Part shown: in pieces, positions 6,839 to 20,575 of the stretch | Layout of the letters: every line of letters starts with the position of its first letter | Numbering within the stretch: position 1 is the stretch's first letter | From: an uncultured Iamiaceae bacterium | GTDB lineage: Bacteria > Actinomycetota > Acidimicrobiia > Acidimicrobiales > Acidimicrobilacustridaceae | Reading direction: 5' to 3' | Assembly (NCBI GenBank): GCA_963712065.1 | Contig: CAVQGM010000002.1 | Span: forward strand, 437,222 to 461,221 | DNA length: 24,000 nucleotides | The notes under the pieces: model-generated | Told to the model about the DNA's origin: nothing | Database searches by the model: none | What the model saw: only the letters and a program-made list of their open reading frames with translations | Translations under genes and position numbers: made by a program

Positions 6839-7807
6839 TCATGACCAGTCGGACACCGAGTGACGCCACCGGAACGCCACCGCCGCGTCGAGGGTGGCCG
6901 GGATGCCGGTCAGGACGCTGGGGTACGTGGGCTCGAGTCCGAGCTCCTTCCACAGGCGGGTGCCGGTCACCGGCAGGTCGAGGTTCCAGCCCCGGACGGT
7001 GTCGACGCTCACGAGGGTCGGGCCCACCCGGCCGAGCAGGGCGCCGCCCACGGCGGCGGCCGCCGTCGCGAGCGAGGCCGGGACCCGAAGGACGTGGACG
7101 CGGGGTGCGTACGAGCTGAGGACGTCGAAGAACTCGTTCCAGGTCACGTTCCGCTGGTCGCCGATCGGGGCCGTGCCCGTCCAGCGCTGCTGCGCCGCGG
7201 CCACGAGCACCGCGGCGGCGTCGTCGACGTGGAGCTGGGCGAAACGGTTGGTGCCGTGGCCGGGGAAGACGACCAGTCGGCGCCGGACCAGCCCGAACAG
7301 GATGCTCTGCGGGCCGTACACGTGGGGCAGCCGCACCGAGGCCACGGTGGGGCCCCCGGCGGACGCGACCTCGTCGAGCGCCGACTCCGCCGCCAGCTTC
7401 GCCCGCCCGTAGCCGAGGCTCGGGCGAGCAGGCGTGTGGTCGTCCACCGGGGCGGAGCCGTCGTGGACGAACATGCTCGACCCGAACACGAGGTGGGCCA
7501 CGCCCGCGTCCGCAGCTGCCTGCGCCAGGCGAGCGGTGCCGTCCACCAGGGTCGGGCGGAGCCGGTCGTAGGGCTCGAACGTGGCCCGCCCGGCGAGGTG
7601 GATGATGGTGTCGACGCCTTCGACCGCCCGTCGCACCGAGGGCGCCGACAGCAGATCACCGTGGACGGGGTCCACGTCGAGCGGGGCGAGCAGCGGCGCC
7701 CGCCCCTCGCGTCGCACCATGACCCTCGGCCGCACGCCCTCGGCGTTGAGACGGCGCACGACCTCGATGCCGATGAAGCCGGTCGCGCCCGTCACGAGGA
7801 TCTGCAC
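6839..7807 (-). CDS. NAD-dependent epimerase/dehydratase family protein (extended SDR)
   Basis: I trimmed track ORF 6839..8011 to the GTG at 7807 (VQILVTGATGFIG...). Motifs: GxxGxxG (TGATGFIG) and the catalytic YxxxK (YGRAK). The longer N-terminus would overlap the divergent gene that starts at 7875. Confidence 0.85.
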   Translation of the reverse strand: MQILVTGATGFIGIEVVRRLNAEGVRPRVMVRREGRAPLLAPLDVDPVHGDLLSAPSVRRAVEGVDTIIHLAGRATFEPYDRLRPTLVDGTARLAQAAADAGVAHLVFGSSMFVHDGSAPVDDHTPARPSLGYGRAKLAAESALDEVASAGGPTVASVRLPHVYGPQSILFGLVRRRLVVFPGHGTNRFAQLHVDDAAAVLVAAAQQRWTGTAPIGDQRNVTWNEFFDVLSSYAPRVHVLRVPASLATAAAAVGGALLGRVGPTLVSVDTVRGWNLDLPVTGTRLWKELGLEPTYPSVLTGIPATLDAAVAFRWRHSVSDWS

Positions 7808-7874
7808 GACCCCAGGGTGGCACGGGTCCGGGCCGAGCGGGCACTCGACCGGGATGCGTGGAACGATGCCGTCG

Positions 7875-9284
7875 ATGGTCGACGCAGTCGTCATCGGGTC
7901 GGGACCGAACGGGCTGACCGCGGCCGTGACCCTGGCGCGACACGGGCGGTCCGTCACCGTGCTCGAGGCGGCCGACACGATCGGCGGGGGCTGCCGCTCT
8001 GCGGCGCTCACCCTGCCCGGCTACGTGCACGACGTCGGCGCCGCCATCCACGCGCTCGGCGCCGGCTCCCCGACGATGACCGCGCTGCCGCTCGAGCGCC
8101 ACGGCCTCGGTTGGATCCACCCCGAGATCCCGCTCGCCCACCCCCTCGACGGCGGGCGGGCGGCGGTGCTGCACCGGGCGCTCGAGCGCACGACGGCCGG
8201 ACTCGGCGACGACGGGGCCGCCTGGCGGCGCCTCTTCGAGCCTCTGGTCGCGGACTGGGACCGCCTCCTGCCGGGGGTGCTGGGCTCGGTGCTGTCGCGG
8301 CCCCGCCACCCGCTCGCCATGGCCCGGTTCGGGCTCGTCGCGGTGCCGCCGGCGTCGCTGGTGGTGCGCCGATTCGGCTCCGAGGAGGCCGCCGCGCTGT
8401 TCGGCGGCTGCGCCGCCCACGGGTTCCTCCCGCCGAGCCACCTGCTCACCTCGGCGTTCGGGACCCTCCTCGTCCTCAGCGCCCACGTGGTCGGCTGGCC
8501 CGTGGCCGCCGGCGGCTCCCAGGCCATCCCCGACGCGCTCGCCGCGCACCTGCGGGAGCTGGGGGGCACCATCGAGACCGGCCGACGCGTCGAGCGACTC
8601 TCGGAGTTGCCTCCCCACCGGGTCGTGCTGTTCGACACGAACCCGGCCCAGGTCGCCTCGATCGCCGCCGATCGGTTGCCGGCGCGCTTCCGGCGTCGCC
8701 TGCAGGAGTTCCGTCACGGCCCGGCGGCGTTCAAGCTCGACTACGCCCTCGACTCACCGGTGCCGTGGACCAACGAGGCGTGCCGACGAGCGGGGACCGT
8801 GCACGTGGGCGGCGGCGTCGCCGAGATGGCGTCTGCCGAGCGCGACGTGGCTCGTGGGCGCATGCCCGACCGTCCGTTCGTGCTGGTGGCCCAGCAGAGC
8901 CTCGCCGATCCCTCCCGTGCCCCCGCCGGGAAGCACACGTTGTGGGCCTACGCCCACGTGCCGCCCGGCTACTCGGGCGACGCCACCGATGCCATCGAAC
9001 GCCAGTTGGAGCGGTTCGCCCCCGGGTTCCGGGATGTCGTCCTGGCCCGACACGTCACCTCCCCGGCCGACTTCGCCGCCTCCAACCCGAACCTCGTCGG
9101 GGGCGACATCGCCGGAGGGGCGCACGACGGCCTCCAGTTGGTGCTCCGGCCGACCATCCGCACCCACGGGACGCCCGACCCGAGCCTGCTGCTGTGCTCG
9201 GCCTCGACGCCGCCGGGCGGAGGCGTCCACGGCGCGTGCGGTGAGGCGGCGGCACGACGGGCCCTCGCCGGGCCGCTGCGATGA
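7875..9284 (+). CDS. NAD(P)/FAD-dependent oxidoreductase, phytoene desaturase (CrtI)-related family
   Basis: I trimmed track ORF 7581..9284 to the ATG at 7875 (MVDAVVIGSGPNGLTAAVTLARHGRSVTVLEAADTIGGG, a dinucleotide-binding fold). The C-terminal ..STPPGGGVHGACG.. is typical of COG1233-type CrtI-like enzymes. It is divergent from the epimerase across a 67-bp spacer. Confidence 0.85.
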   Translation: MVDAVVIGSGPNGLTAAVTLARHGRSVTVLEAADTIGGGCRSAALTLPGYVHDVGAAIHALGAGSPTMTALPLERHGLGWIHPEIPLAHPLDGGRAAVLHRALERTTAGLGDDGAAWRRLFEPLVADWDRLLPGVLGSVLSRPRHPLAMARFGLVAVPPASLVVRRFGSEEAAALFGGCAAHGFLPPSHLLTSAFGTLLVLSAHVVGWPVAAGGSQAIPDALAAHLRELGGTIETGRRVERLSELPPHRVVLFDTNPAQVASIAADRLPARFRRRLQEFRHGPAAFKLDYALDSPVPWTNEACRRAGTVHVGGGVAEMASAERDVARGRMPDRPFVLVAQQSLADPSRAPAGKHTLWAYAHVPPGYSGDATDAIERQLERFAPGFRDVVLARHVTSPADFAASNPNLVGGDIAGGAHDGLQLVLRPTIRTHGTPDPSLLLCSASTPPGGGVHGACGEAAARRALAGPLR

Positions 9285-9309: not shown

Positions 9310-10071
9310 TCAGTCGGCCAGGGTGCCGGCGTAGACCTGCCAGGCGAGGGCGCTCTTGGCCACCAGACTGAGCACGAGATACACCTTCTCACCGAACAGG
9401 TAGTCGGCGAATCGTCCTCGGCGCCGGTACTGCAGCCACTGGTTGAGGGCGAAGCAGTTGAACAGCAGGAACAGCGAGACGAAGATCCCGTAGACGAACC
9501 CGGGAACGCCGTCGCCTTCCTGTTGCGAGGTGAGCAACGCGATCCCGATCGCGACCCATGGCACGATGCCGACGAGGCACCCGAACACGAACGGCCACCA
9601 GTCGACACGGCCGTCGCGGCCGTTGACCCGCTCCATCAGCAGCCCGAACAGGATCATCGCGGCGTTGACGGCGAACAGCCCGATGAGGGCGTAGAGGTTG
9701 GTGATGCCGGGCAGCATCGCGATGAGCACGATCATCACCGAGGCGCTGATCGAGTACTCGATCCATCGGGCGTAGTTGACGCCACGCCCGAGATGGCGCT
9801 CGTACCAGGAGACGATGCCCGGAGTGGCCATCAGCAGGTGGTCCACCGCCGCCAGGAACAGGAACAGGGCGATCGCCAGGGAGAACCGGACGTCGAAGAA
9901 GACCTTCTCGACGGTCAGCGCCGTGCCGGGCGGGCCGGTCTGGACCGGCGCCACCACGGGGATGGCGAAGTCGTTGCTGATCGCCACGATGACGACCGCC
10001 TGGACCAGGTGCACCACGCCGACACCGGTGTTCCAGCGGCGCAGCGACCTCAGCTGAGGGTCGTCGGACAC
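9310..10071 (-). CDS. Heliorhodopsin (7-TM retinal protein with inverted topology)
   Basis: 253 aa with a GTG start. Block-by-block similarity to heliorhodopsin 48C12 as I recall it: LRRWN..GVVHLVQ, NDFAIP, GPPGT, RWIEYSISASVMIVLIA, FAVNAAMILFG, GIVPW, VPGFVYGIFVSLFLLFNCFALNQWLQY, YLVLSLVAKSALAWQVYAGTL. The putative Schiff-base Lys is K239, the counterion is E105, and the conserved His residues are H21 and H78. Confidence 0.9.
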   Translation of the reverse strand: MSDDPQLRSLRRWNTGVGVVHLVQAVVIVAISNDFAIPVVAPVQTGPPGTALTVEKVFFDVRFSLAIALFLFLAAVDHLLMATPGIVSWYERHLGRGVNYARWIEYSISASVMIVLIAMLPGITNLYALIGLFAVNAAMILFGLLMERVNGRDGRVDWWPFVFGCLVGIVPWVAIGIALLTSQQEGDGVPGFVYGIFVSLFLLFNCFALNQWLQYRRRGRFADYLFGEKVYLVLSLVAKSALAWQVYAGTLAD

Positions 10072-10176: not shown

Positions 10177-10932
10177 ATGATCGGCCCATCGGAGCTGCCC
10201 ATTCCCTCCCCGACGGGGGAGCCCGTCAGGCGTGCGGTCATGGTCCAGCACTGGGCCGATGTGGTCTTCGCCCACTGGCGCTACGACCCCGACGTCGTGC
10301 AGCGACTGCTCCCCCCGGGCGTGTCCGTCGACGTGCACGACGGCTCGGCCTGGGTGGCGCTGGTGCCGTTCCGCATGGAGCGTCTCGGGCTCCCCGGCCT
10401 GGCGCCGCTGCCGTTCGTCGGCCGGTTCCCCGAGATCAACGTACGGACCTACGTCCTCGCCGGAGGCCGGCGCGGGGTCTGGTTCTTCTCGCTCGACGTC
10501 GACCTGTTCCTGCCGACGATCGTGGCCCGCACCGTCTACCGCCTGCCGTACTGCTACGGGCGCACCGACCACGTCCGGGTCGCCGATGTCGTCACGACAC
10601 GGGTCGAGCGCCGCTGGCCCCGCTCGACGCTCCCGGCGGCGGCCGCGATGGTCGTGCGCACCGGCGCGGCGATCGAGCCCGACGACACCGTCCAGTTCCT
10701 GACCTCGCGATGGGGACTCGTGTCCGCCGGTCGGCGAGGCGGGCTCCGGTACGCCGCGGTGAGCCATCCGCGATGGCCCCTCCACCACGCCGAGGTGGTG
10801 CACCTCGACGAGGGGCTCGTCACCGCTGCCGGCCTTCCCGCGCCGCACGGCCCACCACATCTGTTGTGGTCGCCCGGCGTCGACGTGCGGGTCGGGCCGC
10901 CCCGGCGCATCGCCGGCCGCTCCGGGCGCTGA
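10177..10932 (+). CDS. DUF2071 (YqjF-like) domain protein
   Basis: These are the last 251 codons of track ORF 8854..10932, starting at the ATG at 10177 (MIGPSELPIPSPTGEPVRRAVMVQHWADVVFAHWRYDP..). The pattern W.D..F.HW......LLP.G...D...G.AWV.LVPF.M and ..FPE.NVRTYV.. is typical of DUF2071. It is divergent from the heliorhodopsin gene across a 105-bp spacer. Confidence 0.75.
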   Translation: MIGPSELPIPSPTGEPVRRAVMVQHWADVVFAHWRYDPDVVQRLLPPGVSVDVHDGSAWVALVPFRMERLGLPGLAPLPFVGRFPEINVRTYVLAGGRRGVWFFSLDVDLFLPTIVARTVYRLPYCYGRTDHVRVADVVTTRVERRWPRSTLPAAAAMVVRTGAAIEPDDTVQFLTSRWGLVSAGRRGGLRYAAVSHPRWPLHHAEVVHLDEGLVTAAGLPAPHGPPHLLWSPGVDVRVGPPRRIAGRSGR

Positions 10933-10958
10933 ACGACGCACGCGGGGCGGGACGCGGC

Positions 10959-11723
10959 TCAGCGCGCACGGGCGAGCCGCTGGAGCTCGTCGAGGGTGGC
11001 GCCGGGCCGACCGACGAGCGAGCGGACGCCTTCGCGCTCGAGGCGCGTCGCGGTCTCCGCCGCCGAGCGCGCCGCGTCGGTCGTGGTGACCGTGAGGACG
11101 GCGAGGTCGACGTCGTGCTCGTGGCAGAACCGGACGAACTCGTCGCCGGGCATGTCGGCGCCCAGGTGGTGCACCCGCCAGTTGTCCTCGCGCAGCGCGG
11201 CGGCGGCCATGGCGGTGGGGAGGGCATGGCGGTCGCCCGACATCGCGGCGACGACGGCGGTGCCCCGGCGTCGTCCCCGCGGCGTCGGGTGGTGGTCGCC
11301 GAGGATCTGCTGGACGATGGCCGAGGCGCGGTGCTCGACCCAGATGGGCAGTCGGCCGGCGTGCCACTCGGCGCCGATGTGGCGCAGCGCCGGGACCAGC
11401 AGCTCCTGGGCGACGGTCGTGAGCGGCACCCCGTCGTCGATCAGTGCGCCTGCCAGCCGTCGGGCGGTGCGCTCGTCACCGTCCACGAGCGCGTCGAGCA
11501 TCTGTCGGCCGAGCGGCTCGAACCCGCCGCGGGGCCGGCGCGGCCGGGGTCTGACGGGAGCCGAGCGGCGGGCTCCGAACGCGTCGACGGCGTTCGGGTC
11601 CAACAGGTAGCGACCCCCGACCATCTCGGCGGGGAGCCGTCCCGAGCGGACCCACTTGTAGGCGGTCTGGTAGTGGACGCCGAGCCGGTCGGCCGCCGTC
11701 TGCAGATCGATCCGAGGGTCCAC
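10959..11723 (-). CDS. CarH/LitR-like cobalamin-binding transcriptional regulator (excisionase/MerR-type HTH plus B12-binding domain)
   Basis: 254 aa. The N-terminal HTH is DLQTAADRLGVHYQTAYKWVRSGRLPAEMVGGRYLLD. The four-helix-bundle signature Wx9EH is present as W120-HAGRLPIWV-E130-H131. The lower-axial-ligand motif is VVAAMSGDRHALPTAMAAAALRE (H165), followed by a Rossmann-like HHLGADMP. Confidence 0.8.
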   Translation of the reverse strand: MDPRIDLQTAADRLGVHYQTAYKWVRSGRLPAEMVGGRYLLDPNAVDAFGARRSAPVRPRPRRPRGGFEPLGRQMLDALVDGDERTARRLAGALIDDGVPLTTVAQELLVPALRHIGAEWHAGRLPIWVEHRASAIVQQILGDHHPTPRGRRRGTAVVAAMSGDRHALPTAMAAAALREDNWRVHHLGADMPGDEFVRFCHEHDVDLAVLTVTTTDAARSAAETATRLEREGVRSLVGRPGATLDELQRLARAR

Positions 11724-11789
11724 GACCCGAGGATACGGCAGGACGCAAATGCGCGCTGAAGTGGGCTAAGGGCGCCCGGACGCGGCTTG

Positions 11790-11975
11790 CTCGGGGAGAC
11801 GTCTTCGTTCGTGGCCGACGGGCGGCCCTTCAACGAGGGCTACCGGTACGTGGACTGGCTCCTCACCGTGCTGCTGCTGCTCGCCGCGCTGGTGCTCGTG
11901 CTCAATCTGGCGAAGGCACCACCCGGAACCTGCTGGTCGAGCTGACCGTCGCCGTGCCCGCGCTAGGGTTCCGGG
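11790..11975 (+). pseudogene. Relic of a type-1 (xanthorhodopsin/actinorhodopsin-like) microbial rhodopsin: helix C and part of helix D only
   Basis: In nominally intergenic DNA, one frame (11817 onward) reads DGRPFNEGYRYVDWLLTVLLLLAALVLVLNLAK with ~100% GC3. This matches the helix-C hallmark FNDAYRYVDWLLTVPLL.VELVLV of xanthorhodopsin and Gloeobacter rhodopsin, but the Pro and the donor Glu are lost. It hits a stop at 11941-11943. After a frameshift it continues TRNLLVELTVAVPALGF, which resembles helix D (R.LL.KLTVA). Helices A, B and E-G, including the Schiff-base Lys, are missing. Confidence 0.6.
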
Positions 11976-11995
11976 ACTCCGTGGAAGGGACCCTC

Positions 11996-12757
11996 ATGCG
12001 TCGTGCCGTCATCGCGTTCTTCGCCGTTGCGCTGCTGGCGATCGGGCTCGCGCCCGCGGCGGGGGCGGGTGGCAGCAGCTTCAGCGTCACCCCGAACCCG
12101 GCGGCACCCGGCGACGAGATCACCTTCGTCGGCACCTGCCTCCCGGGCGACGAAGTGCTGTTCGGGTTCGGCACCACCGAGGCCCCCGAGGTGTCCGACG
12201 AGACGACGGCCGACGGGTCCGGCAACTGGACCGGGTCGCTGGTGATCCCCGCCGACACGGAGCCCGGTGACTACGTCGTCGGCGCGGAGTGCGAGTCCGA
12301 CGAGACCGTCTCGTTCCAGGACTTCCGGGTCGTCGCCGCAGGGCGCATCGTCCTCTTGAAGACGGTGAGCACCACGCCGGACGAGTGTGGCACCGAGCGT
12401 GAGATCGTCGTCCCCAAGGGCACGAAGGTCTACTACTGCTACGCGGTGACCAACGAGACCGAGTTCACGCTCGACGTCCACACCCTCACCGACGACGAGC
12501 TCGGCACCATCTTCACCGACCTCGAGTACGACCTGGCTCCCGGGGCGAGCGTCGACACGGTGGCCGCCGGCGTGGAGGCTTCCGCCGTGATCGACGAGAC
12601 CACCATCAACGGCGCGGTCTGGACGGCGGAGGGGGTCATCCCCGGTGGGCCGGCGGTCAGCTACGAGGCCGATGCCGGGGCCGTGGTGACGGTGGCCGCC
12701 ACCCCGACGACGGCCGCCGCGGCGGCCGCCGCGGTGACGCCCCGCTTCACCGGCTGA
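11996..12757 (+). CDS. Secreted protein with an Ig-like N-domain and a DUF11/TIGR01451-like conserved repeat domain
   Basis: I trimmed track ORF 11954..12757 to M15 (MRRAVIAFFAVALLAIGLAPAAGAGG, a signal peptide) with a GGAAGGG SD 6-7 nt upstream. The repeat-domain pattern is KVYYCYAVTNETEFTLDVHTLTDDELG...LAPGAS. The C-terminus is Ala/Thr-rich. Confidence 0.75.
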   Translation: MRRAVIAFFAVALLAIGLAPAAGAGGSSFSVTPNPAAPGDEITFVGTCLPGDEVLFGFGTTEAPEVSDETTADGSGNWTGSLVIPADTEPGDYVVGAECESDETVSFQDFRVVAAGRIVLLKTVSTTPDECGTEREIVVPKGTKVYYCYAVTNETEFTLDVHTLTDDELGTIFTDLEYDLAPGASVDTVAAGVEASAVIDETTINGAVWTAEGVIPGGPAVSYEADAGAVVTVAATPTTAAAAAAAVTPRFTG

Positions 12758-19311: not shown

Positions 19312-19983
19312 ATGGCGCTCGCGGTCGTTCCTCCACCTCCTCCACCCCCACCGCCTCTGTCGCCGGAGGTGCGGGTGGATGCGTTGTGTGGGGAGTTGGC
19401 GGAGTTGTGTGGGCAGCAGAACGTGATCGCGGGGCGGATCACCGAGATCCTGTCGGAGATCGACGGGTTGTTGGGGGTGACGGGGGCGCGGTCGTTGGAG
19501 CATTTCGCCACCTGGCAGCTGGGGGTGTCGCCGGCGCGGGCGCGGAACCTGGCCGCGATCGCCCGCCGTCGTGAGGCGTTGCCGACCACGACGGGGTTGT
19601 TGGGGGAGGGGGTGTTGTCGGAGGACCAGGCGGCGGTGATCGCCCGTCGGGCCCCGGACGGCACCGACGACCACTACGCCGATCTGGCCCGGTTCGCCAC
19701 CGTGTCCCAGCTCCAGACCGCCCTGCGGCTGGCTCCCACCCCGCCCCCACCTCCGGAGCCGGAAGTGGAACCGGGACCGCAGCCCGATCCGGGGGAGACC
19801 CGCCAGGCCGCCGCGCAGTGGACCGAGCTCGACGAGTGGCTCCTGCACGCCCGCCTGCCCAAGCTCGACGGGGCGGTGGTGGACACCGCGTTGCGGGCCC
19901 ATCTCGACGCGTTGGTGGCCGAATGGGAACGCGAACGCGGAGGCTGGTGGGGCACCGGCCCGGCCGTTCCCGACGCTGGGTGA
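19312..19983 (+). pseudogene. DUF222 domain fragment: N-terminal part of a frameshifted 13E12-type HNH endonuclease gene
   Basis: 223-aa ORF. It has a poly-Pro leader, then CGELAELCGQQNVIAGRITEILSEIDG..GARSLEHFATWQLGVSPARARNLAAIARRREALP, which is typical of DUF222. It ends ..AEWERERGGWWGTGPAVPDAG*. The expected continuation (RPFPTLGDALVRMA..) is in the +1 frame. Confidence 0.75.
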
Positions 19984-19990
19984 TGCGCTG

Positions 19991-20575
19991 GTGCGCATGG
20001 CCACCCTCAGCCTGAACGCCGAAGCGGCACTGCGCCCGCATGCCCATCGCACCACGGTGGTCCTCCACGTCGACGTCGACCGCCAGATCAGTGAGCTGCA
20101 CCTGGGTCCGGCGCTGTCCGACGGCGAGCGGCGGGAGTTGGGCTGTGACGCCCGGGTGGAGACCTGGTTCGAACGGGACGGGGTGCCCATCGGGGTCGGG
20201 CGGGACAGCCGGGAGATCCCCCGCCGGCTGCGCCGGGCGCTCGAGCACCGCGCCCGGGGCCGCTGCGAGGTGCCGGGCTGTGACGCCCGAGCCGGGTTGC
20301 ACGCCCACCACCTCGTCCACTGGGAAGACGGCGGCCCCACCGAGCTGACCAACCTCCTGCTGGTCTGCCCGTCTCACCATCGGGCCCATCACCGGGGGCT
20401 GATCACCATCCGCGGCCCCGCCCCCAGCCTCGAGGTGCTCGACCGGCGCGGCCGGCCGATGCACGGTGGGTCGCTCGCCCGGCCCCCCACCCGACCGCCC
20501 AGACCGGCCCGCTACGACCACCCCCTCGGCGAACGCTTCGACACCCGCTGGTACCACCCACCCACCCTGTCCTGA
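19991..20575 (+). pseudogene. HNH endonuclease domain fragment: C-terminal part of the same frameshifted gene
   Basis: 194-aa ORF in a different frame from 19312..19983. The HNH motif is CEVPGCDARAGLHAHHLVHWEDGGPTELTNLLLVCPSHHRAHH. The frame stays open upstream of its GTG and reads ..ARPFPTLGDALV, so the two ORFs were once a single gene. Confidence 0.75.

Follow-up and report, generated by a model that had tools for sequence, protein, structure and literature searches.

The spacer between a CarH/LitR-like regulator gene and a gene for a secreted protein in the window (the whole 24,000-nucleotide stretch of DNA analysed here; G+C content, 72.5%) holds the remains of a xanthorhodopsin-type proton pump gene. 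With high probability the remains arose in situ, by flanking deletions and a frameshift in a pump gene linked to the CarH-like gene, and are a non-functional remnant. They represent a pseudogene derived from the type-1 rhodopsin family and not a functional member of it, because they lack seven helices and the helix-G lysine and their D-T-E motif is no longer intact. The death of the pump gene is recent, and the heliorhodopsin and photoregulator genes alongside are intact. The features of the locus and the loci of relatives used for comparison are listed in Table 1.

Table 1. Features of the window and comparison loci in relatives (positions are those of the window unless a locus is named)
Feature	Position	Strand	Remarks
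Heliorhodopsin gene, intact	9310..10071	-	PF18761, E=7.5e-97, profile positions 1-242 of 242
DUF2071 gene	~10180-10932	+	
CarH/LitR-like regulator gene, intact	10959..11723	-	MerR-type HTH and B12-binding domains; divergent partner of the rhodopsin gene in relatives
Spacer	between the CarH-like gene and the secreted-protein gene		273 bp
Surviving CarH-proximal half of the divergent control region	11724..11770	.	alignment to intact intergenic regions
Decayed stretch of ambiguous origin	11771..11807	.	37 nt; holds the 5' deletion junction
52-aa ORF	11787..11945	+	TTG start, MLGETSSFVADGRPFNEGYRYVDWLLTVLLLLAALVLVLNLAKAPPGTCWSS; product of relic and frameshift
Relic part 1	11808..11916	+	codons 80-116, end of B-C loop and helix C: FVADGRPFNEGYRYVDWLLTVLLLLAALVLVLNLAK
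1-nt deletion in codon 116	11916..11917	+	AAG G-C ACC ACC vs intact AAR GMN ACN ACC
Relic part 2	11918..11965	+	codons 117-132 read in the shifted frame, C-D loop with the first half of helix D: TTRNLLVELTVAVPAL
Last remnant (tentative)	11966..11977	+	manual codon alignment with a 9-nt gap, codons ~136-140
Secreted-protein gene	11997..12757	+	signal-peptide-like N-terminus MRRAVIAFFAVALLAIGLAPAAGAGG; weak DUF7507 match
Isoamylase gene			after the secreted-protein gene in the local gene order
Intact rhodopsin, seven genome loci	L002, L011-13, L023, L025, L027		
Intact rhodopsin, at least 16 metagenome loci	L059-L068, L078-79, L083-85, L093, L110		
Repeat-bearing intergenic regions	L059:1380-1502, L063, L110, L061, L002:5876-6000, L062:4891-5000, L027, others		

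Homology of the spacer to xanthorhodopsin-type pumps

One frame of the spacer encodes GRPFNEGYRYVDWLLTVLLLLAALVLVLNLAK with a high G+C content at the third codon position, as the first-pass annotation had claimed; the values for the three codon positions of the ORF are 0.64/0.46/0.90. In a phmmer search of PDB, the 52-aa product matched helix C of Kin4B8 xanthorhodopsin (residues 78-115) at E=4e-10, and the further top matches (Thermus TR, Salinibacter xanthorhodopsin, psXR, an actinorhodopsin-like entry and Gloeobacter rhodopsin) were all xanthorhodopsin-clade pumps. An HMM made from seven syntenic intact orthologues matched the spacer at E=1.6e-14. Chance similarity was ruled out by these E-values, in agreement with the earlier statement that the helix-C resemblance lies far beyond chance.

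The score against the Pfam profile of type-1 rhodopsins (PF01036) was 24.3 bits for the raw ORF, slightly below the gathering cut-off of 24.6 bits, and 28.1 bits for the frameshift-corrected relic, which covers profile positions 59-107 of 224; a significant match to the family profile was therefore obtained after correction of the frameshift. Similarly, the tblastn E-value against the intact gene of locus L002 improved from 3e-16 to 2e-21 once the frameshifted continuation TTRNLLVELTVAV was added, which supports the assignment of this continuation to helix D.

The xanthorhodopsin-clade pumps of Acidimicrobiales have been named 'acidirhodopsins' (PMC4337565). The relic was compared with psXR (9wfa), Gloeobacter rhodopsin (6nwd), Kin4B8 (7ytb), Thermus TR (5azd) and Salinibacter XR (3ddl), and its helix C-D sequence (PFNEGYRYVDWLLTV...LV.VL.LAK.TTR.L) is homologous to theirs. 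Unlike these pumps, it comprises about 55-60 of about 268 codons without a start codon and without helices A, B and E-G, its frame is shifted, and Leu and Ala stand in the places of Pro101 and of the proton donor Glu106.

Anatomy and lesions of the relic

The region 11808-11965, probably extending to about 11977, is homologous to codons 80-132 (probably to about 140) of the 268-aa pump and runs from the last part of the B-C loop through helix C to the middle of helix D. Part 1 aligned without gaps over 109 nt to positions 5638-5530 of L002 with 84% identity, and it retains Asp and Thr from the D-T-E motif. The window reads D-T-A at the motif (E106A, codon GCG), whereas Glu is present in all 23 intact orthologues. 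The replacements of the helix-C Pro by Leu and of Glu by Ala, both noted in the first reading of the sequence, were upheld by codon comparison with the intact orthologues.

At codon 116 a single nucleotide has been deleted, and the blastn alignments of the window to L062 and L067 need one gap at this place. As a consequence of the deletion, the frame runs into a stop codon at 11943-11945, 2 bases away from the position given earlier (11941-11943). Downstream of part 2, a manual alignment of 11963-11977 (CTA GGG TTC CGG GAC) with the intact sequence CTG GGG TAC CCG GGC (LGYPG) matched at 13 of 15 nt, and 11966-11977 may tentatively be regarded as the last bit of the relic. Next come the ribosome-binding region of the secreted-protein gene, where GGAAGGGA sits 5-12 nt 5' of the ATG, and the ATG itself (11997). 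On the other side, the sequence 5' of 11808 aligned no better to codons 69-79 of intact rhodopsin genes than to their 5'-UTR, and poorly to both.

Accordingly, about 55-60 of the 268 codons are left. The 5' loss covers the final part of the 5'-UTR, the start codon and about 79 codons that encode helices A-B; the 3' loss covers about 130 codons from the rest of helix D through helix G, including the codon of the retinal-binding lysine, which intact orthologues carry in helix G (ADIVAKP or ADVLAKP). In place of seven helices in one frame there are helix C and half of helix D, interrupted by the frameshift at codon 116. Searches of the 24 kb with a full-length intact orthologue and with the orthologue HMM found no further remnants of helices A, B or E-G, as had been supposed. 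The disabling lesions of the gene thus comprise truncation, a frameshift and loss of the start codon.

Intact orthologues in relatives

The adjacent CarH-like protein served as the anchor for collecting related loci, of which 58 came from species-representative genomes and 52 from metagenomes. The anchor gene encodes a MerR-type HTH together with a B12-binding module (HTH_17, 1.5e-9; B12-binding_2, 7.9e-13; B12-binding, 4.1e-11). Its orthologues were 50-73% identical in 80+ loci, and the closest (68-73% identity) belonged to Acidimicrobiales of the Microthrixaceae, Iamiaceae and Ilumatobacteraceae.

An intact rhodopsin gene of 268-272 aa was found divergent from the CarH orthologue in at least 23 Acidimicrobiia/Actinomycetota loci, starting 100-125 bp upstream of carH in the opposite direction. 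These orthologues have the D-T-E motif in helix C and the lysine in helix G. The L002 protein matched PF01036 at E=1e-39 and the solved xanthorhodopsin-clade pumps at 1e-66 to 1e-80 (1e-80 for psXR). An intact xanthorhodopsin-type homologue therefore occupies, in syntenic relatives, the same position as the relic in the window.

In three loci (L062:2660-3412, L065:1273-2025 and L067:1667-2419) a heliorhodopsin gene, whose product is 49% identical to that of the window, lies directly beside the xanthorhodopsin gene, so that heliorhodopsin, xanthorhodopsin and CarH form a three-gene light cluster. The lineage-specific residues A82, L109 and N120 of the relic are best matched by this group. Because heliorhodopsin adjoins the pump in these loci, a cluster of heliorhodopsin, pump and CarH is plausibly the ancestral state.

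No similar relic was found upstream of CarH in the 24 rhodopsin-less loci searched; weak relic matches in L006, L007, L017 and L020 were located in an unrelated gene or were noise. In a large protein search with the relic, the ORF itself was the sole match, and the closest intact orthologues are therefore those of the collected loci. Among the loci collected, L014 and L016 are freshwater-type contigs that carry a CarH orthologue and the label 'MAG: Bifidobacterium breve', which, judged by the neighbouring genes, looks like a taxonomic mislabel.

The gene order around the relic is unlike that of every relative, with heliorhodopsin on the other side, which indicates that the history of the locus included rearrangements. 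A single inversion of the arrangements found in relatives was considered as the source of the present order and rejected, as no one event fits. In the window and in contig L100 (see below), the DUF2071 gene converges on carH with a gap of 26 bp, and in L002, L003, L004 and L069 it is co-directional with carH and placed after it. No homologue of the secreted-protein gene was found in any related locus examined; this gene lies outside the ancestral cluster and sets the 3' limit of the relic.

Relaxed constraint on the relic

Constraint was assessed over 53 aligned columns of 23 intact orthologues, 31 of which were invariant, using a leave-one-out procedure. The relic was changed at 4 of the 31 invariant columns (P101L, E106A, K112N and M132L). 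When each intact sequence was left out in turn, 22 showed no change at the invariant columns and one showed a single change, and thus the excess in the relic indicates relaxed constraint. The changes are not spread evenly. Between codons 80 and 100 the relic departs from L002 by six synonymous substitutions and a single conservative one, whereas replacements prevail from codon 101 on. The near-synonymous pattern of codons 80-100 is the inherited footprint of past purifying selection.

Independent contig L100

A contig from a different metagenome, L100 (1,710 bp), was 97.7% identical to positions 10181-11905 of the window and shares with it the convergent DUF2071/carH arrangement, the spacer and the 5' junction. 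Since the 5' junction is also present in L100, a mis-assembly specific to the window is excluded on that side. L100 ends at window position 11905, so the frameshift and the 3' junction rest on one assembly.

The two copies differ in their lesions. P101L is common to both, whereas the proton-donor codon 106 is GAA (Glu) in L100 and GCG (Ala) in the window, and codon 112, at the very last base of L100, is AAG (Lys) as against AAT (Asn). As Glu is present in L100 and P101L in both, the change of Glu to Ala postdates the truncation; and as L100 still encodes Glu at codon 106, the decay is ongoing. Mismatches to L100 numbered 10 in the 180 aligned sites of spacer plus relic, compared with 13 in the 1504 sites of the two flanking genes (Fisher p=5e-5). 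L100 is error-prone, with 15 gap openings, many of a single base, and its individual differences are to be read with caution. The relic alone had 2 mismatches in 97 nt, which is not significantly faster than coding DNA (p=0.23).

Control region shared with the CarH-like gene

In the intact loci, 3-4 direct repeats with the core CTRAA and an exact 10-nt period lie between carH and the rhodopsin gene, for example at positions -81/-71/-61/-51 in L059 and -79/-69/-59/-49 in L063. A conserved -10-like hexamer, TAAGTT/TAACTT, overlaps whichever repeat is closest to the rhodopsin gene. The array is likely to be the operator of CarH and would predict that transcription of the pump depends on B12 and light. 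At least 23 loci, from Acidimicrobiia and Pengzhenrongella, have kept the divergent CarH/xanthorhodopsin pair. In one subgroup of the intact rhodopsin genes (L059:~1395-1420, L110, L061, L063, L060 and L068), an inverted repeat that could form a GGGGCACGTGGAGTGCCCC-like hairpin is also conserved between the array and the AAGGAG ribosome-binding site; it is absent in the L062/L065/L067 subgroup.

CarH of Thermus binds three tandem 11-bp repeats. The locus studied here resembles the CarH/LitR photoregulators in that the neighbour of the relic has a MerR-type HTH and B12-binding domains and in that the intact loci have 3-4 tandem repeats between the divergent genes; it differs in the 10-nt period and CTRAA core of the repeats, two of which are left in the window, and in its putative target, which would be a rhodopsin gene and not carotenoid genes.

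From the start of carH to the end of repeat 2, the spacer of the window is collinear with the intergenic region of the ancestral carH-rhodopsin pair. Two of the four repeats are kept, both on the carH side (cores CTGAA at 11756 and CTAAG at 11766), and this part is identical in L100; the repeats would overlap the presumed carH promoter. In contrast, repeats 3-4 and the -10-like TAAGTT on the rhodopsin side are degraded in the window (GGCTTGCT) and differ from L100. For the stretch that follows the kept repeats, two weak alignments were obtained, one to codons 69-79 and one to operator repeats 3-4 together with the rhodopsin 5'-UTR; neither added meaningful score, so the exact 5' junction is ambiguous within it. 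It is also the fastest-diverging part between the window and L100. In the simplest reading, carH has kept the half of the control region on which it depends, and the pump half is decaying with the pump gene.

These features bear on regulatory exaptation, in which the relic and the half-operator would have been kept as a promoter or 5' leader that places the secreted-protein gene, perhaps with the isoamylase gene, under CarH/light control, or that serves carH autoregulation. The intact and shared carH-side repeats would agree with such a role, as would the position of the relic directly upstream of the secreted-protein gene on the same strand, with no terminator-like site between them and with the helix-D remnant in frame with that gene. 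However, the retained repeats account for the spacer and not for the relic, the elements on the rhodopsin side are degraded and differ between the two copies, and an in-frame arrangement has a 1-in-3 chance of arising. A sigma-70-type scan of 11600-12100, the consensus of which is of limited value for actinobacterial promoters, found neither a promoter nor a terminator. Exaptation of this kind is accordingly considered improbable.

The 52-aa open reading frame

The 52-aa ORF that spans part 1 and the frameshift is most likely not a real gene. Its product is identical in sequence to an unnamed predicted protein (P0001; NCBI and ENA sources), which forms a cluster with a single member among 15 billion proteins. 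The earlier description as unannotated therefore does not hold entirely, since the identical product had already been predicted in NCBI/ENA-derived collections. For annotators, this is a warning that a 52-aa 'hypothetical protein' is a piece of a pseudogene.

The possibility that the ORF is translated into a functional micropeptide, derived from helix C and crossing the membrane once, was also weighed. In its favour are an open, hydrophobic frame that a gene finder has called and a GC3 of 0.90, but such a value is expected of a young pseudogene in a genome of 72.5% GC. No Shine-Dalgarno sequence is visible upstream of the TTG start, which is TTA in L100, where an in-frame ATG is found two codons upstream; L100 also has a 1-nt gap inside the ORF. 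Moreover, the substitutions hit the most conserved residues, and the protein cluster is a singleton. A micropeptide is thus very improbable. Taken together, co-option of the relic and half-operator as a CarH-controlled light-responsive leader, or production of the helix-C ORF as a membrane micropeptide, is improbable; if true, it would constitute regulatory or coding exaptation of a dead rhodopsin gene.

The least probable explanation, an assembly or binning artefact in which a rhodopsin piece from another organism or locus was joined chimerically, could draw on a source that is probably a metagenome-assembled or draft genome and on the single assembly behind the 3' junction, but the carH-spacer-relic join recurs in L100, which comes from another data set, the fragment keeps the collinearity with the ancestral intergenic region, its composition fits the host, and a frameshift with substitutions at invariant sites is not expected from the chimeric joining of an intact gene.

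Proposed course of the decay

In the preferred explanation, in-situ pseudogenisation, the ancestor would have carried an acidirhodopsin-like (D-T-E) pump gene divergent from a CarH-like B12/light regulator gene, as in related Acidimicrobiia. A 5' deletion of roughly 260 bp would have taken away helices A-B together with the start codon and the final part of the 5'-UTR, and a 3' deletion or rearrangement would have removed helices E-G with the retinal-binding lysine and brought in the unrelated secreted-protein gene. The 1-nt deletion in codon 116 caused the frameshift. The remnant is unable to bind retinal or to form a 7-TM protein and drifts neutrally, and the CarH-proximal half of the control region was probably retained because carH still needs it. 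The analysis shows directly the homology, the synteny, the lesions, the surplus of changes at invariant sites and the occurrence in a second assembly; from these we infer the order and mechanism of the deletions, the loss of the rhodopsin promoter and the lack of expression.

Gene remnants are commonplace in bacteria. Like other bacterial pseudogene remnants, the relic has a functional homologue, sits at a syntenic position, is truncated at both ends and frameshifted, and shows an excess of replacements at conserved sites. Nothing in this is unusual; what is notable is the identity of the decayed gene, a light-driven pump, and the intact state of the photoregulator and heliorhodopsin genes beside it. 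It is a case of ordinary gene decay and not a new kind of system. In the limited literature corpus searched, no paper on a microbial xanthorhodopsin relic or rhodopsin pseudogene was found, nor any report of a CarH-xanthorhodopsin pair with 10-nt repeats.

The locus records a clean, datable loss of a light-driven proton pump in an Acidimicrobiia-like actinobacterial genome that retained a B12/light regulator and a full-length heliorhodopsin. The earlier characterisation as a molecular fossil of pump loss beside a retained heliorhodopsin is borne out for this locus within the 24-kb window; a statement about the whole organism would reach beyond that length. The retention pattern shows that there is no functional redundancy between xanthorhodopsin and heliorhodopsin of a sort that would require joint retention or joint loss. 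Of wider use than the relic is the conserved divergent CarH-xanthorhodopsin pair with its 10-nt repeat array.

Other observations in the window

Two further observations concern other genes of the window. A DUF222/HNH endonuclease gene is apparently split into adjacent ORFs on the + strand, 19312-19983 (DUF222 profile positions 3-121) and 19991-20575 (positions 215-305 and HNH), and may be a second disrupted gene. An amine-oxidase/desaturase-like flavoprotein gene (7581-9284, + strand) adjoins the heliorhodopsin gene; in some Solirubrobacteraceae loci (L058:4634-5881 and L009:3917-5161), a flavoprotein gene whose product has a dinucleotide-binding N-terminus lies divergent from CarH, in the place that the rhodopsin gene takes in other loci. 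The flavoprotein genes of the window and of the Solirubrobacteraceae loci may encode light-regulated carotenoid-type enzymes.
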